A stretch of 64,000 bases of DNA. It comes from Candidatus Latescibacterota bacterium (lineage in GTDB: Bacteria > Latescibacterota > CBDEFO01). Shown here one piece after another: positions 3,545 through 53,020 of this stretch. The position numbers were made by a program, and so were the translations under genes. The DNA is taken from positions 143,607 through 207,606 of the forward strand of contig CBDEFO010000008.1 of NCBI GenBank assembly GCA_965237525.1, written 5' to 3'. Under the pieces are notes generated by a model that searched no databases, had not been told where the DNA came from, and saw nothing but the letters and a program-made list of their open reading frames with translations. Each line of letters begins with the position of its first letter. Position 1 is the stretch's first letter.

Positions 3545-3610
3545 ATCTTCGATTGAACCCCTGATCCCCGATTGAGTCTATCGGGGATTCAATTGGGGGT
3601 CGGGGATAAC
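3545..3610. repeat. REP-like element: CCCCGATTGAGTCTATCGGGGATTCAATTGGGGG (inverted GATTCAATCGGGG units) in a convergent intergenic region
   Basis: Same motif family recurs at 7731-7751, 28068-28098, 32233-32253, 32303-32334, 34228-34255, 36898-36918, 36969-37003, 38251-38266, 38318-38350 and 43161-43205. Confidence 0.6.
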
Positions 3611-5185: not shown

Positions 5186-5213
5186 AGGTGATCGGTCTCC
5201 TAATAAGTGGGTA

Positions 5214-5267
5214 GGGGCAGACTCGTGTGTCTGCCCCTTAAATTTGGGCGAACACTTGGGTTCGCCC
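5214..5267. promoter_or_regulatory. two adjacent 8-6-8 palindromes, GGGGCAGAC-tcgtgt-GTCTGCCCC and GGGCGAAC-acttgg-GTTCGCCC (half-site GGGCRRAC), between the hyuB stop and the thioredoxin-fold gene start
   Basis: Perfect inverted repeats read directly. The same pair, in the same order relative to the downstream gene, occurs in every TPR-cassette leader (28140-28198, 32360-32421, 34285-34346, 37020-37076, 38365-38432). Confidence 0.5.
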
Positions 5268-6960: not shown

Positions 6961-7230
6961 TCAGTCTTTTCTTTCGGCTCTGAAGACGTATGCGTTCCAG
7001 TGGAATTTTATGACGTCGCTGTCACATTCGATTCCGAAGGCGGCCTTTACCTTCTCGGGGGCGTTCAGAAACATCTCTTTGAGCTGTTCTTTAACTTTGG
7101 AGCCGACTCCGGCTCTGTCTGTCCATCGGCCAAAGGTTTGGTCGTAAGAAACGCAGAGGAGTTCAGCTTTAAGAATGAGTCCGGCTCCTTCGAGCATGCT
7201 CTTCCATTCTGTGGGACGATACATTCTCAC
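6961..7230 (-). CDS. C-terminal tail of a class I SAM-dependent methyltransferase domain, in a shifted frame relative to the upstream ORF (frameshift at about 7230-7260)
   Basis: Upstream of this ORF's first Met the same frame reads AESIRDPSHVRMYRPTEW (classic DPSHVR motif). The 7227-9860 ORF ends in the alternative frame ...INRLNRSAIPRM*. Confidence 0.55.
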   Translation of the reverse strand: MRMYRPTEWKSMLEGAGLILKAELLCVSYDQTFGRWTDRAGVGSKVKEQLKEMFLNAPEKVKAAFGIECDSDVIKFHWNAYVFRAERKD

Positions 7231-10804: not shown

Positions 10805-11202
10805 TACGGCAATCTTCCTCCTCAAGAAAGTAGTGTAGGGGCGAGGTCTCCTCGCCCATGTCAGACAAGCATGTCTGGCTCACCACGCCGAACCCAAGCC
10901 CCTCATGTTTCAAGGGCGCAGACCAACCGTTCGTATGATGTCATCGGTTACCTCCCAAGTTTAGATCCCTGTAAAAAAGCTCAAGCAAAAAGACATCACC
11001 TTTGTCCTTCAAGGCACGCAGTGTGAAAATAAAGGAAAACGTCTTACAGATCGTATGTGATTGTATCACAGCCGCGTGCAGACATTGTCTCTTTGGAGGT
11101 ATTTAGCCGTATGAGATGAAGGGCTATGCAACTTTTGAGGGCATATAACCCTGCTGGCGCACAAAAATGACTATAATTGTATTATTTACCTTACTTTAGT
11201 GC

Positions 11203-11853: not shown

Positions 11854-12196
11854 CGTCCCATGTGTCCCTTAAATGTTTGAGAATCCGACTCAGACGATAT
11901 GTCCTTTTGCTCTGTTCAGTACTGTTATTCACCCTCAGATATATGGCTCTTCTGACGCCCCAATACTATCCATGCTTTTGATAACTGTCCTCCACGCGGC
12001 AGTCATGGGCAGACCGTGGTAACCTGCAAGAGAAAGCTTAACAAGAGCCACGCAGGCTTCATCAGAACGTGGGTCGAACCTCGTCTCTGTGCGATGATGG
12101 ACAGAAGAATCCTCGCCCCAGGGACAGAGTCGGAGCACAATGTCTCCCGTCTCACATGTCTCCAGCCACTTTAAGCCTGAATCGAGTGAACTTTAG

Positions 12197-13715
12197 AAGC
12201 CTTGTGAAAAACCCTTAGATTCAGAAAATAGTATAAAACAAGCATTGATAAAGCAGCTCCGATGTATTATATTATGTTATTGATAATATTATACATGGAG
12301 GAAACAATGACCCCACAAAAGCAGGAACAGACAAATCCGATGTTTCACTATTTTCAGATGGAGGATTTAGTTCCCGAGGATCATATCCTTCGTCAGATTG
12401 ATGAGGCAGTTGATTTTTCATTTGTACGAGACGTTGTATCAGATTGTTATTGCCCTGACAATGGCAGACCCGGTATTGATCCTGAATTAGTTGTTCGAAT
12501 GATCCTTATTGGCTATCTGTATAATTTGAGTGAGAATCGGCTCTGTCAGGAAGTGGGGATGCATGCGGCATATCGGTTGTTTTGTCATCAGACATTTGAT
12601 GATGCGGTTCCGGATAGGAGCACGATCAACAAGCTTCGCAATCACAAGTGGGCATCCAGTGGGTTGTTTGAACGGATAATGCGTCAGGTAGTCCAGTGTT
12701 GCATAGATGTCGGTCTTGTGAGCGGTAAACACCTTAGTGTCGACGGCACTCAGATACAAGCTGATGCTTCAGTGAAAAGTATTGAGCCGATAGAACCCCC
12801 TTTTTCTCTTGATGATTATCTCAAGGGAATCGGTTTTGAAGGTGATAAGACAAAGGGTAGGTCCGGGCATCCTCAGGATAAAGACTTTCATGGTGAAAAG
12901 TGGACGAACCAAACACACCGTTCGACTACAGACCCCGACGCGCGCTTATACAGCAAATCGAAGGGCAAAGGGGCTTTTCTCTCGTTTATGGGCCATGATC
13001 TGATCGACACAAAAAGCAGAGTAATCCTTGAGACTCAGGGCACGCAGGCGACAGGGACAGCAGAGCCCGAAAGTGCCCTTAAGATGGTAGATGACCTTGA
13101 AACATACACCATGCCCAAAGACATTCAGACACTTAGTGCCGATACCGGTTACGGTTCTGGTAATTTTATCGCTGATGTACTTGACCGGGGAATCATACCC
13201 CATATTCCTCTGCGAGCCGATGAGAAGATTGAACCGATTCCTACATGGAAAAACAAGACAAATCCAGCACATATTCAGGCCGAACGGGATAGAAAAGTGC
13301 GAGAGGCGAAAGCCAGAAATCATGCACGGTCTATCTCATTAACAGCTGACTACAAACTCTCCCGGAGACTCCGTAAACGCAGTGAACATATCTTTGCTGA
13401 AGCCAGGCAACAACACGGTATGGGACGAGCCCGTTATAGAGGACCAGCCTCACTGAATGAACAGTTGAATCTTGTTGCAACAGTACAGAATCTCAAGAGG
13501 CTTGTATCTTTCATAAGAAGGGGGAAAGCGCCTATGTGTGCCCTGTCTGTCAAAGACAGTGCATCCTGTTCTTCAAACAGCTCCTATTCCTTGCTGACCA
13601 GAACTCTGATAAGACTATTTTGCTTATTCCACAGCAAAACGATACGATATGCTACTCTTTGACCCATAATCGGCGCTTCAGACGCTGCCTGGGACATAAC
13701 TATTTCACAAGGCTT
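12197..13715 (+). mobile_element. IS5/IS1182-superfamily insertion sequence, complete copy 2 (about 1.52 kb)
   Basis: Terminal inverted repeats AAGCCTTGTGAAA... and ...TTTCACAAGGCTT. Flanked by TTAG at the left and CTAA at the right. Same element at 1-987, 49062-50589 (minus strand) and 63555-end. Confidence 0.85.
12307..13662 (+). CDS. DDE transposase (DUF772 plus DDE_Tnp_1-type), intact
   Basis: ORF 12262-13662. ATG at 12307 (MTPQKQ...) has RBS GGAGGAAACA. N-terminal motif ILIGYLYNLSENRLCQEV is typical of IS5/IS1182 transposase N-termini. Confidence 0.85.
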   Translation: MTPQKQEQTNPMFHYFQMEDLVPEDHILRQIDEAVDFSFVRDVVSDCYCPDNGRPGIDPELVVRMILIGYLYNLSENRLCQEVGMHAAYRLFCHQTFDDAVPDRSTINKLRNHKWASSGLFERIMRQVVQCCIDVGLVSGKHLSVDGTQIQADASVKSIEPIEPPFSLDDYLKGIGFEGDKTKGRSGHPQDKDFHGEKWTNQTHRSTTDPDARLYSKSKGKGAFLSFMGHDLIDTKSRVILETQGTQATGTAEPESALKMVDDLETYTMPKDIQTLSADTGYGSGNFIADVLDRGIIPHIPLRADEKIEPIPTWKNKTNPAHIQAERDRKVREAKARNHARSISLTADYKLSRRLRKRSEHIFAEARQQHGMGRARYRGPASLNEQLNLVATVQNLKRLVSFIRRGKAPMCALSVKDSASCSSNSSYSLLTRTLIRLFCLFHSKTIRYATL

Positions 13716-13831
13716 CTAATGCAATATGGAGGTTTCGTAAATTTATAAATGTTTTGAATCGTAAGTCTCCATATCAGAGTTGACTTTGTCACAAAAGTCT
13801 CTAAAATTCTATCAGGGCGCCTGGGGCATCA

Positions 13832-26001: not shown

Positions 26002-26583
26002 TCAATCCTCCAGTTGACCGCCAACTTCCAGCGCTGCCCAGAAGGCATAGTCAGCGTGGTGCACGATGGTCACGTGCAAAGATCGCTTGACCAATTCGCC
26101 CTCCCCGGAGTGGCAGCCGGCTGCGTGGCATACTTCTTCGGGCAGACTCACTGTGAGGCAAACGTGCGTGCCGTATTGCGTATGCCTAATTGCAGGGAAG
26201 CCCGAGGTGTCGGGATTCTGTTGCCAGCGCTGCTGGTTCTCTGGATCAAACTCGAAGGGCTTTCCCACATCGTGACACAGGGCGCACGCGATCAGCATGT
26301 CGCGATCTATGGGCAAGTCGGGAAACTGGCTATGAAGCGAGTCGGCCAACGCGATCGCCAGCTGCGTCACGCCGCGAATGTGGTCCGTTTGCGTGCCCGA
26401 CTTGAGGCGAGCCGTGTCAGGGTTGCCTGAGGGGCGGATCTGGTCAATGGAGGTGAACAAACTGTGACCCAGGCTGTAAGCCCACGCATCAATGACCTTG
26501 TTGCGCAGTGACTCGTCGCCGATCTGGCTCACCTCAGGCAACGAACGAATAACCGACTCTCGTAGTTTATCTGAAATCTGCAT
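26002..26583 (-). CDS. HD-domain metal-dependent hydrolase
   Basis: 193 aa; H...HDVGK motif context (ACALCHDVGKPFE). Confidence 0.55.
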   Translation of the reverse strand: MQISDKLRESVIRSLPEVSQIGDESLRNKVIDAWAYSLGHSLFTSIDQIRPSGNPDTARLKSGTQTDHIRGVTQLAIALADSLHSQFPDLPIDRDMLIACALCHDVGKPFEFDPENQQRWQQNPDTSGFPAIRHTQYGTHVCLTVSLPEEVCHAAGCHSGEGELVKRSLHVTIVHHADYAFWAALEVGGQLED

Positions 26584-26671
26584 GGCGCGCTCCGATTGAT
26601 ATGGTCTGGCCTCTCATTGTGAGAAGTCAGGGAAAACTATACATGTAAACTTCCGATGCGGGGAAAGGATT

Positions 26672-27868
26672 TTAACCTTCAGGAAATTTGGTATATTCAG
26701 CATCTGAAGGAGCAACCGGGGACAGTGCGAGGGCATCCTTGGGCTTGATCTTCTGAGAGGCTATAAAGGACATAACTGCGACGCCTGCTCCAAGGAAGAA
26801 CACAACTTCATAGCCCAGGGAAATCCAGATGAATCCTCCCACAAGTGGCATTATGACCGCTGCTATGTGGTTCATAGTGACGCCCATAGCCAAAGTCGGC
26901 TTTATATCTTCTGATGACGCCGTTCTGCCTATGTATGTGGTAATAGCCATGCTCAAAAGGAAAAGGAGATTGTCAGTGATGTATAGTAAGAAGAGCAAGT
27001 ATACGTTGTGAATAAGCGCATAGCCCGAAAAGACGATTATAAGACCTCCGTAGCTGATGCTCAAAGCGACCCTTTCGCCCATCTTATCCACAAGCTTTCC
27101 TGCTTGCGGTGCGAGCAGAACGTTCAGGCCGCTGTTTATAAGAGACAGGATCAATATATTGCACAGCTGGACGTTGTAGATCTTAACCAAAGCGAATAAC
27201 GCAAATGTCATAAATATCTGTCTGCGATATCCTGAAAGGAACGTCAAGAAATAGAATAGACTGTATTTTCTTCTGAAGACAAGGTGGACCGTTGTCGGAT
27301 TGCCCGTGTCTTTGGACATAGCAAAGAGGGCAAATGCCCCCGCCACTCCCACGATTCCCGCAGTCCAGTACATCTCTGTGTAGCCGTATCCAAATAGCTT
27401 GATTATATATGTCAGCACAATCCCTGCAAGCGTAGCCAGGCCCGCCACACTCCTTAGCTGTCCTAACCTCTTTCCACGTTCCCTCTCCTCCGTCAGGCTC
27501 AACGCCATGCTGTCGCTGAGAGGCATCCACAGATGGAAGCCTATGCTCCAGATGAAGGAAAAGATGACAAGTGACTCTACGGTATATACGTGGGCATACG
27601 AAAAGAGACCGAATCCGTAGATCATAAGGAATATACCGGCTATCAGGGGTTCTGCAAAGCTGATTATCAGACCGGCTAAAAAGGCGGCAAGCAGGCCCGG
27701 AACCTCTCTTATCGCTTCGACTATACCCAGTTGATGCGCCTCGATCCCCATCCGTTCTACGGCGTAGTTGTTGAATATAGGGACGTGTATCCCGGTTAAC
27801 GTAAACGAGAGCGCAAATACCGAAATAGCAAGCAAGATAAAGTTTCGTCTGATCTGGTCTGAATTCAA
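26672..27868 (-). CDS. MFS-type transporter (12 predicted TM segments), intact; TTG start
   Basis: 398 aa hydrophobic protein; four truncated 5' copies lie downstream in the cassette array. Confidence 0.7.
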   Translation of the reverse strand: MNSDQIRRNFILLAISVFALSFTLTGIHVPIFNNYAVERMGIEAHQLGIVEAIREVPGLLAAFLAGLIISFAEPLIAGIFLMIYGFGLFSYAHVYTVESLVIFSFIWSIGFHLWMPLSDSMALSLTEERERGKRLGQLRSVAGLATLAGIVLTYIIKLFGYGYTEMYWTAGIVGVAGAFALFAMSKDTGNPTTVHLVFRRKYSLFYFLTFLSGYRRQIFMTFALFALVKIYNVQLCNILILSLINSGLNVLLAPQAGKLVDKMGERVALSISYGGLIIVFSGYALIHNVYLLFLLYITDNLLFLLSMAITTYIGRTASSEDIKPTLAMGVTMNHIAAVIMPLVGGFIWISLGYEVVFFLGAGVAVMSFIASQKIKPKDALALSPVAPSDAEYTKFPEG

Positions 27869-28257
27869 GGCTACCTATTCTTCGAATAGACAAAAAATGT
27901 TGATGTTGAGAATATAATTGGTTATACTAAAAGGCGACATTAAACTTAGCAATATAGAAGAGTAATGTCAAGCTTAAACACCTTTTGTCCTTAAAATTGC
28001 CGTTTGGGGAATACGAGACTGCTTCCCCGCGTTCAGCAACGACTAATGGTGTCATTGCGAGGAGGCCTGCCCCCGAATGATTCTGTCGGGGGTTCAATTG
28101 GGACTCAAGAGAAGCGCGGAGGTGACCCTCTATACTTGGTGAACACGAGGGTTCGCCCCGACATTCATGTGTGTAGGTGCAGACTCGTGCGTCTGCCCTG
28201 AAATAAGGTTGCAGTTGTGGGCTCAGTATATCAACTGAGCCGAAAGGAGCACCAGAT
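27869..28257. promoter_or_regulatory. conserved divergent promoter/leader module, copy 1: 6-3-6 palindrome CTATTC-ttc-GAATAG at the MFS RBS, promoter-like TTGATG-17-TATACT (27900-27928), REP-like GATTC..GGGG element, and two 8-6-8 palindromes, followed by RBS AAGGAG
   Basis: Near-identical copies at 32074-32489, 34071-34404, 36764-37154 and (partial) 38215-38500. Confidence 0.55.
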
Positions 28258-29523
28258 ATGAAACTATTTTCAAAGATTGCATGGGAAAGATTACACGAAA
28301 AGGCAACAAGCCTCCACGAACAAGGTCGGTATGAGGAAGCAGTTAAGTTTGCCAAAGATGCTTTGAAAATAGCTGAGGAAACTTTCGGTCCAGAACACCC
28401 CAATATGGCGATCTCCCTGATCAGTCTGGCGAGACTTTACGAAGATCAGGCCAAGTATGCCGAGGCTGAGCCCCTTTGCTGGCGGTCACTGGCAATAAGG
28501 GAAAAAGCCCTTGGAGAAGACCATCCTGCTGTGGCGCAATCCCTGAACAATCTGGCAAGCCTTTATCATTCCCAGGCCAAGTATGTCGAGGCTGAGCCCC
28601 TTTACAAACGGTCACTGGGAATATGGGAAAAAGCCCTTGGGCCAGATCACCCCGATGTGGCTCCTGTGTGGGAGAATATGGCGGGACTTTACAGAGATCA
28701 GGGCAAGTATGCTGAAGCTGAGCCACTTTACACGCGGTCACTGGCAATAAGGGAAAAAGCCCTTGGAGAAGACCATCCTGCTGTGGCGAGATCCCTGGAC
28801 AATCTGGCAAGCCTTTATCATTCCCAGGCCAAGTATGTCGAGGCTGAGCCCCTTTTCAAGAGAGCACTGGAAATAAGGGAAAAAGCTCTTGGCAAAGACC
28901 ATCCTGATGTGGCAACTTCACTGAACAATCTGGGGGAACTTTACAGAGCTCAGGGCAAATATGTCGAGGCTGAGCTCCTTTACTGGCGTTCACTGGCAAT
29001 AACGGCGAAAGTCCTTGGGTCAGACCATCCTAATGTGGCAACTTCACTAAACAATCTGGCGTTACTTTATTATTCCCAGGGCAAGTATGTCGAAGCTGAG
29101 CCCCTTTACAGGCAGGCACTGGCAATAAGGGAGAAAGTCCTTGGGTCAGACCATCCTGATGTGGCAACTTCACTGAACAATCTGGCGTTACTTTATTATT
29201 CCCAGGGCAAGTATGTCGAAGCTGAGCCCCTTTACAAGCAGGCACTGGCAATAAGGGAAAGAGTCCTTGGGCCAGATCACCCCGATGTAGAGTACTCTCT
29301 GAGCGGTCTGGCGTTACTTTATGATTCCCAGGGCAAGTATGCCGAGGCTGAGCCCCTATACAAGAGGTCACTGGCAATAAGGGAGAAAGCTCCTGGGAAA
29401 GACCATCCAACCACGGCGACTTTGTTGGAGAATATGGCAAAGCTTTACAGGAAGATTGGAAAGGAAGATGAAGCGAAAAGGTTGGACGAGCGTGCAGAAG
29501 GAATTCGTTCAAGAAACCAGTGA
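28258..29523 (+). CDS. tetratricopeptide-repeat protein (kinesin-light-chain-type TPR_10/TPR_12 repeats), no signal peptide
   Basis: About 9 units of [36 protein letters not shown] (42 aa). Confidence 0.8.
   Translation: MKLFSKIAWERLHEKATSLHEQGRYEEAVKFAKDALKIAEETFGPEHPNMAISLISLARLYEDQAKYAEAEPLCWRSLAIREKALGEDHPAVAQSLNNLASLYHSQAKYVEAEPLYKRSLGIWEKALGPDHPDVAPVWENMAGLYRDQGKYAEAEPLYTRSLAIREKALGEDHPAVARSLDNLASLYHSQAKYVEAEPLFKRALEIREKALGKDHPDVATSLNNLGELYRAQGKYVEAELLYWRSLAITAKVLGSDHPNVATSLNNLALLYYSQGKYVEAEPLYRQALAIREKVLGSDHPDVATSLNNLALLYYSQGKYVEAEPLYKQALAIRERVLGPDHPDVEYSLSGLALLYDSQGKYAEAEPLYKRSLAIREKAPGKDHPTTATLLENMAKLYRKIGKEDEAKRLDERAEGIRSRNQ
28380..29460. repeat. 126-bp tandem coding repeats (TPR units); also 29614-30650, 32600-32900, 34590-35900, 37230-39800
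   Basis: DNA-level near-identity of successive 126-bp units; long antisense ORFs are artefacts of this periodicity. Confidence 0.8.
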
Positions 29524-29571
29524 TGGCAATATCACACAAATTAGCCTTCGGAGAATTTCCATTCTACGGAT

Positions 29572-30727
29572 GACGCGATGGCAAGGATAAGGGACATCGG
29601 TATAAAAATAGGCGACCTCCCTGAACAATCTGGCGGAACTTTATTATTCCCAGGGCAAGTATGTCGAAGCCGAGCCTCTTTATAAGCGGGCACTGGCAAT
29701 AAGGGAAGAAGTCCTTGGCAAAGACCATCCCGATGTGGCGACCTCACTGGACAGGCTGGCGGGACTTTATTATTTCCAGGGCAAGTATGTCGAAGCCGAG
29801 CCTCTTTATAAGCAGGCACTGGCAATAAAGGAAGAAGTCCTTGGCAAAGACCATCCCGATGTGGCGACCTCACTGAATTGTCTGGGGTTACTTTATCATT
29901 CCCAGGGCAAGTATGTCGAAGCCGAGCCTCTTTATAAGCAGGCACTGGCAATAAAGGAAGAAGTCCTTGGCAAAGACCATCCCGATGTGGCGACCTCACT
30001 GAACAATCTGGCGGAACTTTATTATTCCCAGGGCAAGTATGTCGAAGCCGAGCCTCTTTATAAGCGGTCACTGGCAATATACGAGAAAGCCCTTGGCAAA
30101 GACCATCCCAATGTGGCGAACTCCCTGAACAATCTGGCGGAACTTTACAGAGCTCAGGGCAAGTATGCCGAGGCTGAGCCACTTTATGAGCGGTCACTGG
30201 CAATATACGAGAAAGCCCTTGGCAAAGACCATCCCGATGTAACTTACCCCCTGAACAATCTGGCGTTGCTTTATAAGACTCAGGGCAAGTATGCCGAGGC
30301 TGAGCCTCTTTATAAGCGGGCACTGGCAATAGGGGAAAAAGCCCTTGGCAAAGACCATCCCAATGTGGCGACTTCCCTGAACAATCTGGCGGGACTTTAT
30401 AAGACTCAGGGCAAGTATGCCGAGGCTGAGCCACTTTATGAGCGGTCACTGGCAATAAAGGAAAAAGCCCTTGGCAAAGACCATCCCAACCTGGCGACCT
30501 CCCTGAACAATCTGGCGGGACTTTATAAGACTCAGGGCAAGTATGCCGAGGCTGAGCCTCTTTATAAGCGGGCACTGGCAATAAAGGAGAAAGCCCTTGG
30601 CAAAGACCATCCCAGTGTGGCGACTGTGTTGGAGGATATGTCGGAGTTTTACGAGAAGATTGGTAAAGAAGATGAAGCTAAGAGGTTGGCCGAACGTGCG
30701 AGAGGAATTCGTTCAAGAAGCCAGTAA
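29572..30727 (+). pseudogene. chimera: first 42 nt of the DmpA gene fused out of frame to a TPR repeat array (TPR copy 2), lacking a proper start
   Basis: ATGGCAAGGATAAGGGACATCGGTATAAAAATAGGCGACCT is then joined mid-repeat to ...CCCTGAACAATCTGGCGGAACTTTAT; the TPR frame is closed by a TAG immediately upstream. Confidence 0.6.
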
Positions 30728-30781
30728 TAGAGGTAACGCACGAATAAGACTTCGGAGAAGTTCCATTTTACGGATGACGCG

Positions 30782-31773
30782 ATGACAAGGATAAGGGACA
30801 TCGGCATAAAAATAGGCGACCTTGAAACGGGAGAACTCAACTCCATCTCTGACGTTGAGGGCACGAAAGTAGGGCACGTTGACATGGGTCATGACGGAAC
30901 GCCCTTAAGGACCGGAATAACTGCCGTAGTGCCCCCTCGACAGGAGAAGAGAAGAAAACTCTTCATCGGTAGATACGGCGTCAAAGACTGGGACGGAATG
31001 ACAGGCTTGAGGCAGCTGAGGACTTTGGGACGTTCTCGTCCCCCATAGTATTAACGAGTGCTGCAAGCGTGGGCGTCGTCTACAACGCCTGCATAACCTA
31101 CGGACACAAAAGAGACCGTGGGCTGCCCATAGACGCCGGATGGCCACCCGTCGTGATAGGCCTGGACGACTCCTATCTGAATGACCCTGAAAAGGAAAGA
31201 GAGATAAAGGAGGACATCCTCTTTGAATGCTTCCAGAAAGCGCAAGGAGAAAAAGTGGAGGAGGGAAACGTGGGAATCGGAAGAGGACTGTGCGCCTTCG
31301 GACTAAAAGTCGGAATCGGGCAATCGTCCAGAAAAGTCCAGGGCTACACCGTAGGCATCCTTGTAGCGTCCAACGGAGGAATCAGGAGGAGCCTGACTGT
31401 GGATGGAGTTCCGGTCGGAAGACATCTCTCTGCGCCCCAACCACAGGGCATACTCACAAGGTCAATCGTGGCAGTAACCGCCACAGACGCCCCTTTGACC
31501 CCAAAGCAGTTCGACCACCTTTCGGAGATGACCGGAGCAGGTTTGATCAAAGGGGGATTCATAGACGCTCATATAGACCAAGGATTGATAGTTTCTTTTT
31601 CCACTTCAAATTCCATAGACGCTCCCTTCGAGAACCAAAAGACCTACAGAATCAGATCTGTTCCCCAAGGGGAGCTCTATCCTCTCTTCGACGCTGCCAT
31701 AGAAGCTGCTCAAGAGGCCGGACTGAACTCACTTACCACATCGAAAAGTGCAGAAGGCAAGGACGGACGATAA
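30782..31773 (+). pseudogene. DmpA/BapA-like S58 peptidase, copy with 1-bp deletion (frameshift near 31005)
   Basis: ORFs 30782-31048 and 31069-31773 together match the intact 349-aa copy at 39910-40959; CTTGAGGCAGCTGAG versus CTTGAGCGTAGCTGAG. Confidence 0.7.
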
Positions 31774-31857
31774 AGGCGATACCCCAAGATCAGCTTACCG
31801 AAATAATGGGAAGATACAGGGGGACCGACTGATCATGCCCGAACCATTTCTTTCAAC

Positions 31858-32073
31858 TTATCTATCTGCTCTTGCCTTCCCAGAACGATGAGCATATCTC
31901 CTTCCTTCAACTCTTATCGATTCGACTATACCCAGTTGATGCGCCTCGATCCCCATCCGTTCTACGGCGTAGTTGTTGAATATAGGGACGTGTATCCCGG
32001 TTAACGTAAACGAGAGCGCAAATACCGAAATAGCAAGCAAGATAAAGTTTCGTCTGATCTGGTCCGAATTCAA
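31858..32073 (-). pseudogene. 5' fragment (about 180 bp) of the MFS transporter gene
   Basis: First 60 aa identical to the intact MFS N-terminus, then divergence. Confidence 0.7.
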
Positions 32074-32489
32074 GGCTACCTATTCTTCGAATAGACAAAA
32101 AATGTTGATGTTGAGAATATAATTGGTTATACTAAAAGGCGACATAGAGTTTAGCAAAACAGGAGTGTAATGTCAAGCTCAAGCTCCTTTTGTCCTTAAA
32201 ATTTCAGTTTGGGGAATATGAGATTTCTTCCTCCCGATAGGTTCAATCGGGGGTGCTGGCAATGACTAAGGGAGAGGTCATTGTGAGGAGGTCTGCCGCT
32301 GAATGATTCTATCGGGGGTTCAATCGGGGACTCAAGAGAAGGGAGAAGGTGCTCCTGTATACTGGGCGAACACGTGGAAAAAGCATTCATCTGTTGTAGG
32401 GGCAGACCCGTGTGTCTGCCCTGGAATGATGACTACTAATGTGAGGAGGAACCCTTCCTTGATTCCTTGAACCGAAAGGAGCACCAGAT

Positions 32490-32993
32490 ATGGGGGCATT
32501 TTCAAAGTGGGAAATACTAATGGAAAAGGCAGAAACGTTCCGCGAACAAGGTCAGTATGAGAAAGCAGTTAAGGTTGCTAAAAAGGCTTTGAAAGTAGCT
32601 GAGAAAACTTTCGGTCCAGACCATCCCGATGTGCTGATCTCACTGGACAGTCTGGCGGTACCTTATGCTTATCAGGGCAAGTATGCCGAGGCTGAACCCC
32701 TTTTCAAGCGGGCACTGGCAATGAGGGAAGAAGCCCTTGGAAAAGATCATCCCGCTGTGGCGGGCTCACTGAACAATCTGGTGGTACTTTACAGAGATCA
32801 GGGCAAGTATGCCGAGGCTGAGCCCCTTTACAAGCGGGCACTGGCAATAGTCGAAAAAGCTCTTGGCAAAGACCATCCTGATATGGCGACTGTGTTGGAG
32901 AATATGTCGGAGTTTTACGAGGAGATTGGTAAAGAAGATGAAGCTAAGAGGTTGGCCGAACGTGCGAGAGGAATTCGTTCAAGAAGCCAGTGA
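32490..32993 (+). CDS. short TPR protein (167 aa, about 3 repeats), cassette 2
   Basis: Same N-terminus type as 28258 (MGAFSKWEILMEKAETF...), and same C-terminal tail ...EEIGKEDEAKRLAERARGIRSRSQ. Confidence 0.65.
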   Translation: MGAFSKWEILMEKAETFREQGQYEKAVKVAKKALKVAEKTFGPDHPDVLISLDSLAVPYAYQGKYAEAEPLFKRALAMREEALGKDHPAVAGSLNNLVVLYRDQGKYAEAEPLYKRALAIVEKALGKDHPDMATVLENMSEFYEEIGKEDEAKRLAERARGIRSRSQ

Positions 32994-33047
32994 TGGCAAT
33001 ACGGCACAAATTCACCTTCGGAGAATTTCTATTTTACGGATAGCGCA

Positions 33048-33657
33048 ATGGCAAGGATAAGGGACATCGGCATAAAGATAGGCGACCTTGAAACGGGAGA
33101 ACTCAACTCCATCTCTGACGTCGAGGGCACGAAAGCAGGGCACGTTGACATAGATCATGACGGAACTCCCTTAAGGACCGGAATAACTGCCGTAGTGCCC
33201 GGAGAAGAGAAGAAAACTCTTCATCGGAAGATACGGCGTCAAAGACCGGGACGGAATGACAGGCTTGAGCGTAGCTGAGGACTTCGGGACGTTCTCATCT
33301 CCCGTAGTTTTGACGAGTGCTGCAAGCGTGGGCGTCGTCTATAACGCCTGCATAACCTACGGACACAAAAGAGACCGTGGACTCCCCATAGACGCCGGAT
33401 GGCCACCCGTCGTGATAGGCCTGGACGACTCCTATCTGAACGACCCTGAAAAGGAAAGAGAGATAAAGGAGGACATCCTCTTTGAATGCTTCCAGAAAGC
33501 GCAAGGAGAAAAAGTGGAAGAGGGAAACGTGGGAATCGGAAGAGGACTGTGCGCCTTCGGACTAAAAGTCGGAATCGGGCAATCGTCCAGAAAAGTCCAG
33601 GGCTACACCGTAGGCATCCTTGTAGCGTCCAACGGAGGAATCAGGAGGAGCCTCACT
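33048..33657 (+). pseudogene. DmpA-like peptidase copy with an 8-nt deletion (frameshift at about 33200), truncated at about 33657 where it joins antisense MFS sequence
   Basis: ORFs 33048-33278 and 33256-33822; the latter reads into the reverse strand of the MFS fragment. Confidence 0.65.
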
Positions 33658-33659
33658 AG

Positions 33660-34070
33660 CTGTCCTAACCTCTTTCCACGTTCCCTCTCCTCCGTCAGGC
33701 TCAGCGCCATACTGTCGGTGAGAGGCATCCACAGATGGAAACCTATGCTCCAGATGAAGGAAAAGATGACAAGTGACTCTACGGTATATACGTGGGCATA
33801 CGAAAAGAGACCGAATCCGTAGATCATAAGGAATATACCGGCTATCAGGGGTTCTGCAAAGCTGATTATCAGACCGGCTAAGAAGGCGGCAAGCAGGCCC
33901 GGAACCTCTCTTATCGCTTCGACTATACCCAGTTGATGCGCCTCGATCCCCATCCGTTCTACGGCGTAGTTGTTGAATATAGGGACGTGTATCCCGGTTA
34001 ACGTAAACGAGAGCGCAAATACCGAAATAGCAAGCAAGATAAAGTTTCGTCTGATCTGGTCTGAATTCAA
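33660..34070 (-). pseudogene. 5' fragment (about 410 bp) of the MFS transporter gene
   Basis: ORF 33603-34070 matches the MFS N-terminal 120 aa. Confidence 0.7.
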
Positions 34071-34404
34071 GGCTACCTATTCTTCGAATAGACAAAAAAT
34101 GTTGATGTTGAGAATATAATTGGTTATACTAAGAGGCGACATTAAACTTAGCAATACAGAAGAGTAATGTCAAGCTTAAACACCTTTTGTCCCTAAAATT
34201 GCCGTTTGGGGAATACGAGATTGCTTCCCCCCGATTGAATCTATGGGGGACTCAAGGGAAGGGAAGAGGTGGGCCTGTATACTGGGCGAATACGCGAGTT
34301 GCCCCTTACATTCATCAGTTGTAGGGGCAGACCCGTGTGTCTGCCCTGAAATAAGGTTACAGTTGTGAGCTCATTATATCAGTGAGCCGAAAGGAGCACC
34401 AGAA

Positions 34405-35979
34405 ATGAGAGTATTTTCAAAAGTTTTCGTGATTGCATCCCTATGCTTATCGTTTGCCGCAACTGCTTTTTCCCAGGAAACGTTATGGGAAATACTAAAC
34501 GAAAAGGCAACAAAACTCTACCAACAAGGTCAGTATGAGGAAGCAGTTAAGTTTGCCAAAGAGGCTTTGAAAGTAGCTGAGGAAACTTTCGGTTCAGAAC
34601 ACCTCAATATGGCGATCTCACTGAACATTCTGGCGTTACTTTACAGCGATCAGGGCAAGTATGTGGTGGCTGAGCCACTTTACAAGCGGGCACTGGTAAT
34701 AACGGAAAAAGTCCTTGGCAAAGACCATCCCAGTGTGGCGACCACCCTGAACAATCTGGCGTTACTTTACAGCGATCAGGGCAAGTATGTGGTGGCTGAG
34801 CCACTTTCTAAGCGGGCACTGGTAATAACGGAAAAAGTCCTTGGCAAAGACCATCCCAGTGTGGCGCAATCCCTGAATAATCTGGCGGTACTTTATCATT
34901 ATCAGGGCAAGTATGTCGAGGCTGAGCCCCTTTACAAGCGGTCACTGGCAATAGCAGAAAAAGCCCTTGGAAAAGACCATCCTGATGTGGCGCAATCCCT
35001 GAATAATCTGGCGGTACTTTATCATTATCAGGGCAAGTATGTCGAGGCTGAGCCCCTTTACAAGCGGTCACTGGCAATAGCAGAAAAAGCCCTTGGAAAA
35101 GACCATCCCAGTGTGGCGGGCTCACTGGGCGGTCTGGCGGTACTTTACAGAGATCAGGGCAAGTATGACGAGGCTGAGCCCCTTTATGAGCGGTCACTGG
35201 CAATAAGGGAAAAAGCCCTCGGAAAAGACCATCCCGATGTGGCGACCTCATTGAACGGTCTGGCGTTACTTTACAGCGATCAGGGCAAGTATGTCGAGGC
35301 TGAGCCCCTTCACAAGCGGGCACTGGCAATATACGAGAAAGCCCTTGGAAAAGACCATCCCAGTGTGGCGACTTCCCTGAATAATCTGGCGGTACTTTAT
35401 GATAGTCAGGGCAAGTATGTCGAGGTTGAGCCCCTTTACAAGCGGGCACTGGCAATATACGAGAAAGCCCTTGGAAAAGACCATCCTGATGTGGCGCAAT
35501 CCCTGAACAATCTGGCGGTACTTTATGATAGTCAGGGCAAGTATGTCGAGGCTGAGCCCCTTCACAAGCGGGCACTGGCAATATACGAGAAAGCCCTTGG
35601 AAAAGACCATCCCAGTGTGGCGACTTCCCTGAATAATCTGGCGGTACTTTATGATAGTCAGGGCAAGTATGTCGAGGTTGAGCCCCTTTTCAAGCGGGCA
35701 CTGGCAATATACGAGAAAGCCCTTGGAAAAGACCATCCTGATGTGGCGCAATCCCTGAACAATCTGGCGGTACTTTATGATAGTCAGGGCAAGTATGTCG
35801 AGGCTGAGCCCCTTTTCAAGCGGTCACTGGCAATAAGAGAAAAAGCCCTTGGCCAAGACCATCCCGATGTGGCGACTGTGTTGGAGAATATGGCGGAGCT
35901 TTACGAAGAGGTTGGAAAGGAAGATGAAGCTAAGAGGTTGGCCGAACGTGCGAGAGGAATTCGTTTAAGAAACCAGTAA
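34405..35979 (+). CDS. TPR protein (524 aa, about 11 repeats) with an N-terminal signal peptide, cassette 3
   Basis: MRVFSKVFVIASLCLSFAATAFSQ precedes the conserved ETLWEILNEKATKL... start region. Confidence 0.75.
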   Translation: MRVFSKVFVIASLCLSFAATAFSQETLWEILNEKATKLYQQGQYEEAVKFAKEALKVAEETFGSEHLNMAISLNILALLYSDQGKYVVAEPLYKRALVITEKVLGKDHPSVATTLNNLALLYSDQGKYVVAEPLSKRALVITEKVLGKDHPSVAQSLNNLAVLYHYQGKYVEAEPLYKRSLAIAEKALGKDHPDVAQSLNNLAVLYHYQGKYVEAEPLYKRSLAIAEKALGKDHPSVAGSLGGLAVLYRDQGKYDEAEPLYERSLAIREKALGKDHPDVATSLNGLALLYSDQGKYVEAEPLHKRALAIYEKALGKDHPSVATSLNNLAVLYDSQGKYVEVEPLYKRALAIYEKALGKDHPDVAQSLNNLAVLYDSQGKYVEAEPLHKRALAIYEKALGKDHPSVATSLNNLAVLYDSQGKYVEVEPLFKRALAIYEKALGKDHPDVAQSLNNLAVLYDSQGKYVEAEPLFKRSLAIREKALGQDHPDVATVLENMAELYEEVGKEDEAKRLAERARGIRLRNQ

Positions 35980-36035
35980 TAGAGGTAACGCACGAATAAG
36001 ACTTCGGAGAATTTCCATTTTACGGATGACGCGAT

Positions 36036-36625
36036 GACAAGGATAAGGGACATCGGCATAAAGATAGGCGACCTTGAAACGGGCAAACTCAACTCCATCT
36101 CTGACGTCGAGGGCACGAAAGTAGGGCACGTTGACATAGGTCATGACGGGTTAAGGACTGGAATAACAGCCGTGGTGCCTCCCGGAGCAAGATAAGAGGA
36201 GAAAACTCTTCATCGGAAGATACAGCGTCAAAGACTGGGACGGAATGACAGGCTTGAGCGTAGCTGAGGACTTCGGGACGTTCTCGTCCCCCATAGTATT
36301 AACGAGTTCTGCAAGCATTGGGATCGTCTACAACGCCTGCATAACCTACGGACACAAAAGAGAGCATGGGCTGCCCATAGACGCCGGATGGCCCCCCGTC
36401 GTGATAGGCCTGGACGACTCCTATCTGAATGACCCTGAAAAGGAAAGAGAGATAAAGGAGGACATCCTCTTTGAATGCTTCCAGAAAGCGCAAGGAGAAA
36501 AAGTGAAAGAGGGAAACGTGGGAATCGGAAGAGGACTGTGCGCCTTCGGACTAAAAGTCGGAATCGGGCAATCGTCCAGGAAAGTCCAGGGCTACACCGT
36601 AGGCATCCTTGTAGCGTCCAAGCGT
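36036..36625 (+). pseudogene. DmpA-like peptidase copy with a 1-bp insertion (frameshift at about 36195) and 3' truncation at about 36625
   Basis: CCTCCCGGAGCAAGATAAGAGGAG versus the intact CCTCCCGGACAAGATAAGAGGAG; ORF 36245-36637 covers residues about 80-200 only. Confidence 0.65.
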
Positions 36626-36639
36626 TCTACGGCGTAGTT

Positions 36640-36763
36640 GTTGAATATAGGGACGTGTATCCCGGTTAACGTAAACGAGAGCGCAAATACCGAAATAGCA
36701 AGCAAGATAAAGTTTCGTCTGATCTGGTCCGAATTCAAGGCTACCTATTCTTCGAATAGACAA
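36640..36763 (-). pseudogene. short 5' fragment of the MFS transporter gene
   Basis: ORF 36551-36763 N-terminal residues match the MFS protein. Confidence 0.55.
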
Positions 36764-37154
36764 AAAATGTTGATGTTGAGAATATAATTGGTTATACTAA
36801 AAGGCGACATAGAGTTTAGCAAAACAGGAGTGTAATGTCAAGCTCAAGCTCCTTTTGTCCTTAAAATTTCAGTTTGGGGAATATGAGATTTCTTCCTCCC
36901 GATAGATTCAATCGGGGGCGCTGGCAATGACTAAGGGAGAGGTCATTGTGAGGAGGTCTGCCGCCGAATGATTCTATCGGGGGTTCAATCGTGGACTCAA
37001 GAGAAGGGAGAAGGTGCTCCTGTATACTGGGCGAACACGTGGGGAAAGCATTCATCTGTTGTAGGGGCAGACCCGTGTGTTTGCCCTGAAATGATGACTA
37101 CAATGTGAGGAGGAACCCTTCCTTGATTCCTTGAACCGAAAGGAGCACCAGATA

Positions 37155-38200
37155 TGAGGGCACTTTCAAAGTGGGAAAGACTATCGAAAAGGCAGTAACG
37201 TTCCGCGAACAAGGTCAGTATGAGAAAGGAGTTAAGGTTGCTAAAAAGGCTTTGAAAGTAGCTGAGAAAACTTTCGGTCCAGACCATCCCTATGTGGCGA
37301 CCTCCCTGAACGGTCTGGGGTTACTTTATTATTCCCAAGGCAAGTAGGACGAGGCTGAACCCCTTTTCAAGCGGGCACTGGCAATGAGGGAAGAAGCCCT
37401 TGGAAAAGATCATCCCGATGTGGCGGGCTCACTGGGCGGTCTGGGGTTACTTTATTATTCCCAGGGCAAGTATGACGAGGCTGAGCCCCTTTATGAGCCA
37501 ATATGGGAAAAAGCGCTTGGGACCACCCCAATGTGGCGGCTGGACAGTCTGGCGGATCTTTACAGGCTCAAGGCGAGTATGAAGGCTGAGCCCCTTTATA
37601 GTCCCTGAGAAAGCGCTCGGAAAAAATTCCCGATGGATGACCCAGACAATCTGGCGGAACTTTATTATCCCCGATGTCGAAGCCGAGCCTCTTTACAAGC
37701 GGGCACTGAAGAACATTTGGTTCTGGCGGAATCTACTTTTTATTCCCAGGGCAAGTATGTCAGGAGCAACTGGCAATATGACCTTGGAAAAGATTCTAGG
37801 CTGAGAGATCAGGGCTTTAGCCTCTTTATAAGCGGTCACTGGCAATATGCGAAAAAGGGAATCCCTATGTGGCGAAGTTACTTTATTATTCCCCAAGTAT
37901 GTCGAAGTCGGCCTCTTTATAAAGACTGACATCCTTGGCAAAGACCATCCCGCTGTGGCGGTCTCCCTGACCGGTCTGGGGTTACTTTATTATTCCCAGG
38001 GCAAGTATGTCGAGGCTGAACCCCTTTTCAAGCGGTCACTGGCAATAAGGGAAGAAGTCCTTGGCAAAGACCATCCCGATGTGGCGACCTCACTGAACAA
38101 TCTGGCGGAACTTTATTATTCCCAGGGCAAGTATGTCGAAGCCGAGCCTCTTTATGAGCGGTCACTGGCAATATAGACGAAAAAGCCCTTGGAAAAGACC
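37155..38200 (+). pseudogene. heavily degraded TPR gene (cassette 4): premature TAA/TAG codons and many small deletions within repeats
   Basis: MRALSKWERLSKRQ* right after the start; broken repeat units such as ...EPLYEPIWEKALGTTPMWRLDSLADLY. Confidence 0.7.
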
Positions 38201-38499
38201 ACATAGAGTTTAGCCAGGATGTGGCGCTCCTCACTAAAACAGTCTGGGGAATATACTTTATAGATTCAATCGGGGGCAGGGCAATGTATGACGAGGCTGA
38301 GGAGGTCTGCCCCGAATAATTCTATCGGCGGGTTCAATCGGGGACTCAAGAGAAGGGAGAAGCTCCTGTATACTGGGCGAACACCTGGGGAAAGCATTCA
38401 TCTGTTGTAGGGGCAGACCCGTGTGTCTGCCCTGAAATGATGACTACAATGTGAGGAGGAACCCTTCCTTGATTCCTTGAACCGAAAGGAGCACCAGAT

Positions 38500-39855
<1,356 letters not shown>

Positions 39856-39909
39856 TGGCAATATGGCACAAATTCACCTTCGGAGAATTTCCATTTTACG
39901 GATAGCGCA

Positions 39910-40959
39910 ATGGCAAGGATAAGGGACATCGGCATAAAAATAGGCGACCTTGAAACGGGCAAACTCAACTCCATCTCTGACGTCGAGGGCACGAAAGTAG
40001 GGCACGTTGACATAGGTGATGACGGGTTAAGGACTGGAATAACAGCCGTGGTGCCTCCCGGACAAGATAAGAGGAGAAAACTCTTCATCGGAAGATACGG
40101 CGTCAAAGACTGGGACGGAATGACAGGCTTGAGCGTAGCTGAGGACTTCGGGACGTTCTCATCTCCCGTAGTTTTGACGAGTGCTGCAAGCGTGGGCGTC
40201 GTCTATAACGCCTGCATAACCTACGGACACAAAAGAGACCGTGGGCTGCCCATAGACGCCGGATGGCCACCCGTCGTGATAGGCCTGGACGACTCCTATC
40301 TGAATGACCCTGAAAAGGAAAGAGAGATAAAGGAGGACATCCTCTTTGAATGCTTCCAGAAAGCGCAAGGAGAAAAAGTGGAAGAGGGAAACGTGGGAAT
40401 CGGAAGAGGACTGTGCGCCTTCGGACTAAAAGTCGGAATCGGGCAATCGTCCAGAAAAGTCCAGGGCTACACCGTAGGCATCCTTGTAGCGTCCAACGGA
40501 GGAATCAGGAGGAGCCTCACTGTGGATGGAGTTCCGGTCGGAAGACATCTGTCTGTACCCCAGCCAGAAGGCATAGTCACAAGGTCAATCGTGGCAGTAA
40601 CCGCCACAGACGCGCCATTGACCCCCAAGCAGTTGGACCACCTTTCGGAGATGACCGGAGCAGGTTTGATCAAAGGGGGATTCATAGACGCGTATATTGA
40701 CCAGGGATTGATAGTTTCTTTTTCCACTTCAAATTCCATAGACGCTCCCTTCGAGAATCAAAAGACCTACAGAATCAGATCTGTTCCCCAAGGGGAGCTC
40801 TATCCTCTCTTCGACGCTGCCATAGAAGCTGCTCAAGAGGCCGGATTGAACTCACTTACCACATCGAAAAGTGCAGAAGGCAAGGACGGACGGACGATAA
40901 AGGCGATACCCCAAGATCAGCTCGTCGCAATAATGGGAAGATACAGGGGGACCGACTGA
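39910..40959 (+). CDS. DmpA/BapA-like S58 family peptidase (L-aminopeptidase D-Ala-esterase/amidase, beta-aminopeptidase type), the only intact copy
   Basis: 349 aa. N-terminal MARIRDIGIKIGDLETGKLNSISDVEGTKVGHVDIGDDGLRTGITAVVPP matches the DmpA-family start. Confidence 0.75.
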   Translation: MARIRDIGIKIGDLETGKLNSISDVEGTKVGHVDIGDDGLRTGITAVVPPGQDKRRKLFIGRYGVKDWDGMTGLSVAEDFGTFSSPVVLTSAASVGVVYNACITYGHKRDRGLPIDAGWPPVVIGLDDSYLNDPEKEREIKEDILFECFQKAQGEKVEEGNVGIGRGLCAFGLKVGIGQSSRKVQGYTVGILVASNGGIRRSLTVDGVPVGRHLSVPQPEGIVTRSIVAVTATDAPLTPKQLDHLSEMTGAGLIKGGFIDAYIDQGLIVSFSTSNSIDAPFENQKTYRIRSVPQGELYPLFDAAIEAAQEAGLNSLTTSKSAEGKDGRTIKAIPQDQLVAIMGRYRGTD

Positions 40960-41964
40960 TCATGCTCGAACCATTTCTTTCAACTTATCTATCTGCTCTT
41001 GCCTTCCCAGAACGATGAGCATATCTCCTTCCTTCAACGTGGTATGCCCCGGCGGCCTTATGGAGACCTTTCCATCTCTGTCCTTAAGTCCGACAACGAT
41101 GCACCCCGTCAGTTCCGGCTTTACAAAGATCTCGTCCAGCAGGGATTTGTCTGCCAGACTCGAGCCCGGCCTTACAAAGACCTCCTCAAGTCCTAAAGAA
41201 ACGTCGTCACCGTGGACCATGACATCCAAAAAATTCACTAACGCTGGATGCAGGATTACAGAGGCCATCCTCAGTCCCCCTATTCTCGGCGGACTTATCA
41301 CTCTGTCCGCCCCCGCCCTGATCAGCTTCTCCTCCACTGTGTCGTCAGATGCCCTTGCCACTATTGCAAGGTCCGGATTCATCCCCCTTGCCGACAGGGT
41401 CACAAAGACATTATCCGAATCTGTATCCAGAGCGGTCACCAGTCCCTTAGCCGTTTCGATTCCCGCCCTTCTCAATACCTCGTCGTTTGTAGCATCACCC
41501 TCTACCATCAGTATGCTGCGACCATCTATCGTGAGATCCTCAGACGGTTTTCGGTCTATCACTACAAAATCTACGCCTGTCCTTACAAACTCGGATACCA
41601 CGTGTCTTCCGACCCTTCCACACCCGCAAAGTATGTAGTGCCCCTCCAGTTTCTCGATTTCCTTCTGCATCTTTCTCCCCTTCATTATGTCTGTTATCTG
41701 ACCTTCCACCACAAAGGCTGTAAGATTCCCAAGAGAATAGGCAACCCATCCGACTCCCAGTACTATAAGCACCATAGTAAATGACTGCCCTAACGTGGAA
41801 AGTCCTTTCACCTCCCTAAAGCCCACAGTAGCCATTGTTATGACCGTCATATAGAGCGAGTCGTGAAGACTCCAGTCCTCTATTAACATATATCCCAAGC
41901 TCCCGCCCACCAAAAGGAAGATCAAAATTCCCATAGAGATAAAGAGCTTGTTCAAAGGTGACAT
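40960..41964 (-). CDS. two-TM pore channel with RCK (TrkA-N/TrkA-C) gating domains; non-canonical filter TVGFRE
   Basis: Pore-helix/filter TMATVGFREV; Rossmann motif ILCGCGRVGRHV. Confidence 0.65.
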   Translation of the reverse strand: MSPLNKLFISMGILIFLLVGGSLGYMLIEDWSLHDSLYMTVITMATVGFREVKGLSTLGQSFTMVLIVLGVGWVAYSLGNLTAFVVEGQITDIMKGRKMQKEIEKLEGHYILCGCGRVGRHVVSEFVRTGVDFVVIDRKPSEDLTIDGRSILMVEGDATNDEVLRRAGIETAKGLVTALDTDSDNVFVTLSARGMNPDLAIVARASDDTVEEKLIRAGADRVISPPRIGGLRMASVILHPALVNFLDVMVHGDDVSLGLEEVFVRPGSSLADKSLLDEIFVKPELTGCIVVGLKDRDGKVSIRPPGHTTLKEGDMLIVLGRQEQIDKLKEMVRA

Positions 41965-43160: not shown

Positions 43161-43205
43161 GGCAGTAGCCTCCGATCCCCGAAGGACTCAATCTGGGATT
43201 CAATC
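43161..43205. repeat. REP-like element (CCGATCCCCGAAGGACTCAATCTGGGATTCAATCGGAGGG) downstream of the dehydrogenase gene
   Basis: Member of the GATTCAATCGGGG family. Confidence 0.5.
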
Positions 43206-43312
43206 GGAGGGTAGACGCGAGACCGCTTCCTCCCTAAACCGTTACTGCGATCCGAAGCCCAGAGCGAAGCGAAGAGACTGCCAAGCAGTCTCATTTTAGG
43301 ACAGATGCAACT

Positions 43313-43981
43313 ATGAAATTCACTGACCACCTCAGAGAAAAAGCTGCACCTATATGGGAAAGAGAAATGGAGCATCCGTTCGTATCTGGCATAGGTGACG
43401 GATCGCTCCCGCTCGATAAATTCAAATACTATATGTGTCAGGACTACCTCTTTTTGATCGAATACAGTAGGCTCTTTGGGCTGGCTGTCGCAAGGTCCGA
43501 TGACCTTGAAACGATGGGCAGATTTGCCGAACTCCTTTCCGCCACGCTCAACGTTGAAATGGATCTGCACAGGAGCTACGCTCGAAAGTTCGGCATAGAA
43601 GAGGGGGAATTAGAAGATACAGTGATGTCCCCTACGACGCATGCCTACACCCGACATCTTCTGCATGTAGCCGAAACGGGGACCACTGCGGAACTCGTGG
43701 CAGCCGTGCTCCCATGCGCCTGGGGCTACTGGGAGATCGGAACAAGACTTGCAAAGAAGGGAGAACCGAAAGCCCAACTGCTCTACGGAGAGTGGGTCAA
43801 AACTTACTCCTCACAGGAGTTCGGGGAGTTTGCCGACTGGTTGAAGGACCTGCTGGACTCGCTGTCCCACGGCCTTAACGAGCACGAACTCAGAAAACTT
43901 GAAGGGCACTTCATCACCAGTAGTAGATACGAATACATGTTCTGGGAGATGTCCTACAACGAGGAGGAATGGCCGGTCTAA
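43313..43981 (+). CDS. tenA: TenA-family thiaminase II / aminopyrimidine aminohydrolase
   Basis: FKYYMCQDYLFLIEYSRLFG and a TenA/PqqC-like fold signature. Confidence 0.8.
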   Translation: MKFTDHLREKAAPIWEREMEHPFVSGIGDGSLPLDKFKYYMCQDYLFLIEYSRLFGLAVARSDDLETMGRFAELLSATLNVEMDLHRSYARKFGIEEGELEDTVMSPTTHAYTRHLLHVAETGTTAELVAAVLPCAWGYWEIGTRLAKKGEPKAQLLYGEWVKTYSSQEFGEFADWLKDLLDSLSHGLNEHELRKLEGHFITSSRYEYMFWEMSYNEEEWPV

Positions 43982-50589: not shown

Positions 50590-50646
50590 TCTAATACGAT
50601 TGGACTTTGCTGTTGAGAGTTATCGATTTCAATTCATAAGGAAATT

Positions 50647-52944: not shown

Positions 52945-53020
52945 AAGACCATTAGGATATTTGTCTGTTCTCACAGTGATGGATTTCATCTTAAATGTTC
53001 TTGAGAAGGGAGGCTAAAAA

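Follow-up and report, generated by a model that had tools for sequence, protein, structure and literature searches.

Organization of the locus

The window (the whole 64-kb stretch of DNA analysed) carries an MFS transporter gene on the minus strand and a first TPR gene on the plus strand, separated by an intergenic region referred to here as the leader. BLAST of this region against the window and alignment of the resulting copies revealed five leaders, c1 to c5 (Table 1), with matches to the c1 region at 31911-32507 (c2), 33902-34421 (c3) and 36623-37183 (c4) and a partial match at 38299-38536 (c5). Most motifs described in a first-pass annotation of this DNA are visible in the five-copy alignment. 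Its statement that every cassette carries the same ordered elements is borne out for the leader as a whole, which is present five times, but several of the elements are missing in some copies.

In front of each extra leader copy come first a truncated peptidase S58 gene and then a 5′ fragment of the MFS gene; c5 has no MFS fragment, 6-3-6 palindrome or promoter-like site, and its ATG is replaced by ATC. Of the MFS and S58 genes, only the first and the last copy (39910-40959), respectively, are intact. TPR genes downstream of the leaders are mostly truncated or interrupted: only that of c3 (34405-35979, 524 aa) looks uninterrupted, while that of c1 is split (28258-29523 and 29735-30727), that of c2 encodes 167 aa and those of c4 and c5 are fragments. 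No regulator gene is present in the cassette. An exact-sequence look-up of three window proteins (K+ channel, S58 peptidase and the product of the right-end ORF) found none of them on record.

Table 1 Main features of the window, with REP-containing genes of other loci in the last three lines
Feature	Position	Strand	Details
Independent REP dimer	5211-5271	both orientations	'HH', REPIN-like, GTAG heads outward; R1 34.5 + 40.3 bits
R1 match, left unit of dimer	5209-5238	plus	34.5 bits, E 9e-7
R1 match, right unit of dimer	5244-5273	minus	40.3 bits, E 3e-8
Variant GTAG REP	10835-10857	plus	GTAGGGGCGAGG-tct-CCTCGCCC; R1 20.5 bits, E 0.003
R1 match to variant REP	10833-10859		20.5 bits, E 0.003
MFS transporter gene	26672-27868	minus	TTG start 27868-27866
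Leader c1	27869-28257	plus	gap between MFS gene and first TPR gene; aligns with four paralogous copies
6-3-6 palindrome CTATTC-ttc-GAATAG	27875-27889		MFS RBS region; 7-21 nt upstream of TTG start
Sigma-70-like site TTGATG-17-TATACT	27900-27928	plus	9/12 positions match
Second-family element in c1	28070-28102	plus	hairpin CCCCCGA-atgattctg-TCGGGGG, then half-unit TTCAATTGGG
REP A of c1	28138-28162	minus	decayed; reverse complement GTCG-GGGCGAAC-cctcgt-GTTCACC; R1 10.4 bits, E ~1
REP B of c1	28173-28198	plus	GTAG-GTGCAGAC-tcgtgc-GTCTGCCC; one stem mismatch; R1 21.2 bits, E 0.002
Pre-RBS hairpin	28220-28241	plus	GGCTCAGT-atatca-ACTGAGCC; type I leaders (c1, c3) only
First TPR gene (TPR_10/TPR_12 repeats)	ATG at 28258	plus	AAGGAG at 28244-28249
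Leader c2	~32074-32489
REP B of c2	32396-32421	plus	GTAGGGGCAGACCCGTGTGTCTGCCC; R1 46.3 bits, E 1e-9
Leader c3	~34071-34404
REP B of c3	34321-34346	plus	R1 46.3 bits, E 1e-9
Leader c4	~36739-37160
REP B of c4	37061-37086	plus	C>T; R1 42.2 bits, E 1e-8
Leader c5	~38230-38560
REP B of c5	38407-38432	plus	R1 46.3 bits, E 1e-9
Second-family copies elsewhere	3566-3598; 7730-7752; ~43170-43212
Very large ORF	52995-59942		2315 aa
REP-containing RAYT gene in L005	3366-3962
REP-containing RAYT gene in L054	1889-2647
REP-containing RAYT gene in L102	2400-3056

Four copies of a 1.5-kb IS with a DUF772/DDE_Tnp_1 transposase are present in the window (1-990, 12190-13720, 49069-50593 on the minus strand, and 63550-64000), which starts and ends inside copies; these are ~99% identical to a copy in L237, a 1.95-Mb ENA contig of a possibly related genome. 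The ORF at 992-2128 encodes an HTH_32-type (PF13565) transposase with 91% protein identity to one on L237, and a transposase of this type adjoins a DDE IS copy in both. As a route to a related locus this ORF was discarded, being an IS transposase; the 21 kb of L237 share with the window only IS copies and one unit of the second hairpin family described below. In a second strain (L120, ENA contig_140), 97.5% identical overall to the window, a 1.3-kb insertion (L120 9035-10337, relative to window 19198/19204) carries a 396-aa ORF without a Pfam domain and lies just upstream of the gene for a large TIG/LTD-domain protein.

A REP heterodimer in the leader

Two palindromes, A and B (REP A and REP B in Table 1), precede the TPR start codon. 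They are real and related to each other and form stable hairpins, as first described. Palindrome B (GTAG-GGGCAGAC-ccgtgt-GTCTGCCC) folds as RNA into a stable hairpin (-16.3 kcal/mol, z = -4.6; -13.8 kcal/mol for the c1 copy) and is present in all five leaders; in c4 its reported decay amounts to one C>T change (GTTTGCCC), which makes one stem pair G.U in RNA of the plus strand. Both palindromes had been placed in every cassette, but A is imperfect in c1 (GGTGAAC/GTTCGCC, with a G.U pair, and a GTCG rather than a GTAG foot), broken by indels in c3 and without its 3′ arm in c2, c4, c5 and strain L120. This decay of A in four of the five copies counts against the idea of a conserved regulatory pair.

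REPs are non-autonomous hairpin elements. The GTAG-footed hairpins are recognised as single-stranded DNA by the tyrosine (HUH) transposases called RAYT or TnpA_REP, and REPs associated with RAYTs spread as dimers. GTAG lies directly before the stem in all five copies of palindrome B, as well as in both units at 5211-5271 and in the element at 10835. The stems (GGGCAGAC/GTCTGCCC and GGGCGAAC/GTTCGCCC) are GC-rich, and the elements have the form of REPs, palindromes of 20-40 nt with three G-C pairs at the bottom. In c1, REP A (minus strand) and REP B (plus strand) form a 'TT' dimer with GTAG heads inward and a 10-nt spacer (28138-28198). The pair is a heterodimer of a CGAAC-stem unit and a CAGAC-stem unit. 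With the foot included, it consists of the same two units as the dimer at 5211-5271, heads facing each other.

REP copies elsewhere in the window

The 5211-5271 dimer (GTAGGGGCAGAC-tcgtgt-GTCTGCCCC, an 8-nt spacer, ttaaattt, then GGGCGAAC-acttgg-GTTCGCCCCTAC) lies outside the cassettes, at an unrelated locus between two co-directional genes. The stop codon of one of these, encoding hydantoinase B (5268-6959, minus strand), is provided by the TAG of the right-hand GTAG foot (5268-5270, minus strand). Dimers in unrelated genomes share ~80% identity with it over ~62 nt, and also its order of CAGAC-type unit on the left and CGAAC-type unit on the right. The variant REP at 10835-10857 is found just upstream of the start of an O-methyltransferase gene. 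Together with the leader this makes three independent GTAG REP loci in 64 kb, a modest density. The remainder of L120 and the 21 kb of L237 yielded no GTAG REP. A tblastn search found no RAYT gene within the 64-kb window; a weak match at 43407-43565 was dismissed as the thiaminase TenA.

REP family in other genomes

A pattern scan with GTAGGGGCRRAC-N6-GTYYGCCC over one genome per species (596 Gb) gave at least 119 loci versus ~17 expected by chance according to our own arithmetic. The matches listed cover Firmicutes (Oscillospiraceae), Bacteroidota, Cyanobacteria, Chloroflexota, Acidobacteriota, Desulfobacterota, Poribacteria, Chlorobium, Hahella and others. Their loop consensus, CYNYGT, is shared by the window copies. 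Among the matches listed, 136 of 140 distinct sequences have complementary bases at the two variable stem positions, versus 49 expected if these varied independently; stems that covary while complementarity is kept are the signature of recognition as a single-stranded hairpin, not of a fixed operator half-site. Inverted partners of the 146 foreign REPs among the matches listed have heads outward in 46 cases and heads inward in seven, with a further 10 arranged in tandem, and the CAGAC-left/CGAAC-right heterodimer is itself conserved across genomes.

ORF clustering around the matches listed identified no common neighbour gene, except for four RAYT genes that themselves contain REPs: among these matches (at least 119 loci), the REP lies in frame inside a gene in L005, L054, L102 and L039. 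The gene encodes ~200-250 aa, matches Pfam Y1_Tnp (PF01797) and NCBIfam REP_Tyr_transpos ('REP-associated tyrosine transposase') and has the motifs MPNH[IFL]H...WQRNY..H...YIxNNP (NH[IF]H, WQ/WH and YIxNNP). TnpA_REP proteins of subclass 2.4 are characterized by NH[IFV]H, WQ and YIxNNP and by REPs with three G-C pairs at the bottom of the stem, and are abundant in Cyanobacteria and Bacteroidetes and scattered in other phyla (Quentin et al. 2018, PMC6006769). The in-frame REPs within RAYT genes, identified independently here, match a published feature of this subclass exactly (PMC6006769). The GTAG-tagged REP superfamily, with HH and TT dimers and heterodimers, has been described by Di Nocera et al. 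2013 (PMC3733652).

A covariance model (R1) built from 100 foreign REPs, with zero window sequences, was run over the window with filters off. It recovers REP B of the leader by sequence and structure, with E-values down to 1e-9, as well as both units at 5211-5271 and the variant at 10835 (Table 1), while the low score of REP A in c1 marks it as a decayed copy. REPIN-like inverted dimers are thus represented in the window by an HH pair (5211-5271) and a TT pair (leader c1).

These results bear on two other explanations. That the palindromes arose by chance, or were made by the duplication itself, and belong to no repeat family at all has next to no probability. It is true that the five leaders are all paralogues, whose agreement alone proves nothing, but the copies at 5211-5271 and 10835 are independent, R1 returns E-values down to 1e-9 and the REP search pattern gives 7 matches in the window versus 2.3 expected.

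The first-pass annotation had suggested that the palindromes (half-site GGGCRRAC) are either tandem operators for a dimeric regulator, here taken as a transcription factor controlling the TPR and/or MFS gene, or a pair of RNA hairpins in a long 5′ UTR. Perfect 8-6-8 inverted repeats between divergent genes do resemble operators. However, the same sequences occur at the 3′ end of the hydantoinase gene, in many phyla and inside RAYT genes, one of the two supposed operators has been lost in three of the five copies, and the cassette is without a regulator gene. The bases of the half-site covary instead of being fixed, and its occurrence is not limited to the promoters of one regulon. We therefore regard control through an operator pair as very improbable, and a regulatory device specific to the cassettes, be it operators or a dedicated hairpin pair, is not supported.

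Tandem duplication of the cassettes

The tandem segmental duplication spans 26672-41038, the unit consisting of a truncated S58 gene, MFS 5′ fragment, leader and TPR gene. The ancestral order was MFS (minus strand), leader, TPR, S58 and K+ channel (minus strand), and was then amplified in tandem. The three S58/MFS junctions (31911 joined to 27706, 33657 to 27455 and 36621 to 27753) are all different, each with 2-4 nt of microhomology. REP-mediated recombination was considered as the cause of the amplification and rejected, as the junctions carry microhomology, not REPs.

The leaders fall into two types, I (c1, c3) and II (c2, c4, c5). Identity among them is 99-100% over the MFS-proximal 80 nt, ~83% beyond this and 51-57% just before the RBS. 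REP A is the most divergent segment (55-64% between types), while REP B plus spacer is 89-100% identical between types, compared with 51-88% for the flanks. The L120 leader is a mosaic of a c3-type deletion and a type II 3′ part, indicating that gene conversion among the copies is active. Since the copies are tandem segmental duplicates, agreement of the five leaders reflects paralogy and not independent conservation, and the palindromes look conserved mainly because the whole intergenic region has been copied several times by recent local duplication. Covariation among the five leaders is not informative, with three single stem substitutions and zero compensatory pairs. The only close homologue of the MFS protein is P0001 (99%), on the L120 contig, which ends inside the leader; the next, P0002 (55%), is found in another gene context that lacks a TPR gene. 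Otherwise the nearest homologues show 45-55% identity and include proteins from MAGs of Poribacteria and Latescibacteria.

The conservation of REP B plus spacer beyond its flanks could indicate selection on this particular copy. One explanation would be that the REP was exapted: hairpin B in the putative TPR 5′ UTR would have a selected effect in cis, as a 5′ stabiliser, RNase barrier or translation modulator. Exaptation is also favoured by the stability of the hairpin, by its position 60-85 nt upstream of the ATG and beyond both candidate -10 boxes on their downstream side, by the G.U compatibility on the plus strand of two of three stem substitutions (c4 REP B; c1 REP A), and by the fact that REPs can be transcribed and influence mRNA fate (reviewed in PMC3733652). 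On the other hand, there are zero compensatory double changes, REP A has not been maintained, most downstream TPR genes are truncated or interrupted, making selection on the leaders doubtful, and the gene conversion evident from the mosaic leader of L120 can explain local identity. Exaptation is rather unlikely on this balance, and we likewise consider it unlikely that REP B was domesticated as a cis-acting RNA hairpin of the TPR 5′ UTR, selected through the amplification while REP A decayed. If it had been, leaders with and without an intact hairpin B would differ in TPR expression.

Other leader elements and a second repeat family

The 6-3-6 palindrome does lie in the MFS RBS region but is 7-21 nt upstream of the TTG start that it was thought to overlap; it is identical in c1 to c4 only because it falls in the segment that is 99-100% identical among copies. 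The sigma-70-like site was found where expected, but one such match is expected by chance in the region (shuffles, mean 1.1) and c5 lacks it. A second TATACT box (28131-28136), invariant in all five leaders, is located immediately upstream of REP A. It may serve as the actual -10 element for the TPR gene, and the transcript would then start within REP A. The hairpin said to precede the AAGGAG RBS exists in c1 and c3 but is replaced by unrelated sequence (51-57% identity) in c2, c4 and c5.

REP-like material had been correctly sensed in the leader, but the element flagged (GATTCT...TTCAATCGGGG) belongs to a second dispersed hairpin family, CCCCGAT-AGATTCA-ATCGGGG, found in either orientation, once or twice per leader. 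In place of the GATTCT..TTCAATCGGG element, c3 carries just one inverted unit. A third, short segment of leader sequence (GTCATTGCGAGG / CAATGAC) is repeated near 3470 in inverted orientation. The leader folds strongly (z = -3.7 for 336 nt), which is explained without a dedicated RNA because its middle part is a nest of dispersed palindromic repeats. Rfam (15) gave zero matches at gathering score over the whole window and zero at E up to 5 over 26500-39500.

Metagenomes contain the second family in 115 stretches, where it is often part of larger multi-copy elements; ORF clustering of these 115 loci revealed only spurious repeat-derived ORFs and no linked transposase. In a series of JGI metagenomes (L123, L132, L151, L163, L171, L173 and others) these larger elements with the hairpin inside are of at least two kinds, for example ...GCAAAAATGGCCTCCGTCCCCGATAGATTCAATCGGGGACAACTTGCCAGTTTCCCCAAAAATCAA.... 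Within the window, the second-family hairpin at 7730-7752 lies in frame in the ORF at 7227-9860 (minus strand), in the linker that joins the hydantoinase A domains (aa 13-695) to a methyltransferase domain at the C-terminus (aa 740-865). Two genes may have been fused here by insertion of the repeat.

Origin of the leader palindromes

The two palindromes are very probably a dimer of GTAG-tagged REPs of the RAYT subclass 2.4 type, situated in a duplicated, repeat-rich intergenic region. A point against this reading is that dimers with heads inward (TT) are a minority across genomes (7/146 among the matches listed). The MFS-TPR intergenic region harboured a REP heterodimer and, in all, two or more families of short palindromic repeats before microhomology-mediated tandem duplication of the block of truncated S58 gene, MFS 5′ fragment, leader and TPR gene generated four more leader copies. 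The repeated 'ordered elements' therefore reflect paralogy plus gene conversion. The REPs appear to be passengers without a dedicated regulatory role here, with REP A presumably decaying neutrally. REP B may have been kept nearly intact by gene conversion, or its stable hairpin (-16 kcal/mol) may be tolerated or mildly useful in the putative TPR transcript.

REPs of the subclass 2.4 type are hereby documented in an uncultured lineage, in a setting in which they were multiplied passively by host duplication and not by transposition. Scans of this kind call for caution: recurrence in 'every cassette' of a tandem duplication is not independent conservation, and any GC-rich 8-6-8 palindrome that has a GTAG foot ought to be checked for being a REP before anything else. 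The element is of a known kind, and the new instance opens no new mechanism; as such it is an ordinary finding.

Comparison with known systems

Riboswitches and other structured 5′ leaders (Rfam) likewise comprise a long, strongly folding region upstream of a gene. Unlike these, the leader has zero Rfam matches, its fold consists of independent repeat hairpins and its structure is not kept among the copies. Operators of dimeric factors also consist of inverted half-sites around a central spacer and lie between divergent genes, but they keep their half-site and stay within a regulon, whereas the window palindromes keep complementarity while the bases vary, and occur at unrelated loci and in different phyla. 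REPs/BIMEs of E. coli are also GTAG-headed palindromes, often in alternating orientation, and are transcribed within operons, where they can stabilise mRNA or bind host proteins. They differ in stem and loop sequence and in their association with RAYT subclass 2.2; moreover, E. coli BIMEs are mostly located between convergent or co-directional genes, while the leader dimer lies in a divergent promoter region.

The closest known system is that of the GTAG REPs/REPINs of RAYT subclass 2.4, equivalent to group 4 of Bertels (PMC6006769, PMC3733652; Bertels & Rainey 2011, PMC3116915). The window elements differ from typical members in that the two heads of the leader dimer point inward (TT), which is the less common arrangement, and one of its units is decayed, and in that this element was multiplied by segmental duplication of the host DNA and not by transposition. 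They share with the subclass the 5′ GTAG foot, the GC-rich 8-bp stem with three G-C pairs at the bottom and the 6-nt loop; the arrangement as inverted dimers with a short A/T-rich spacer, including heterodimeric units (CAGAC and CGAAC stems); a position outside genes, which in one case adjoins a stop codon; and high R1 scores, with the identical motif found in frame inside the RAYT genes of other genomes.
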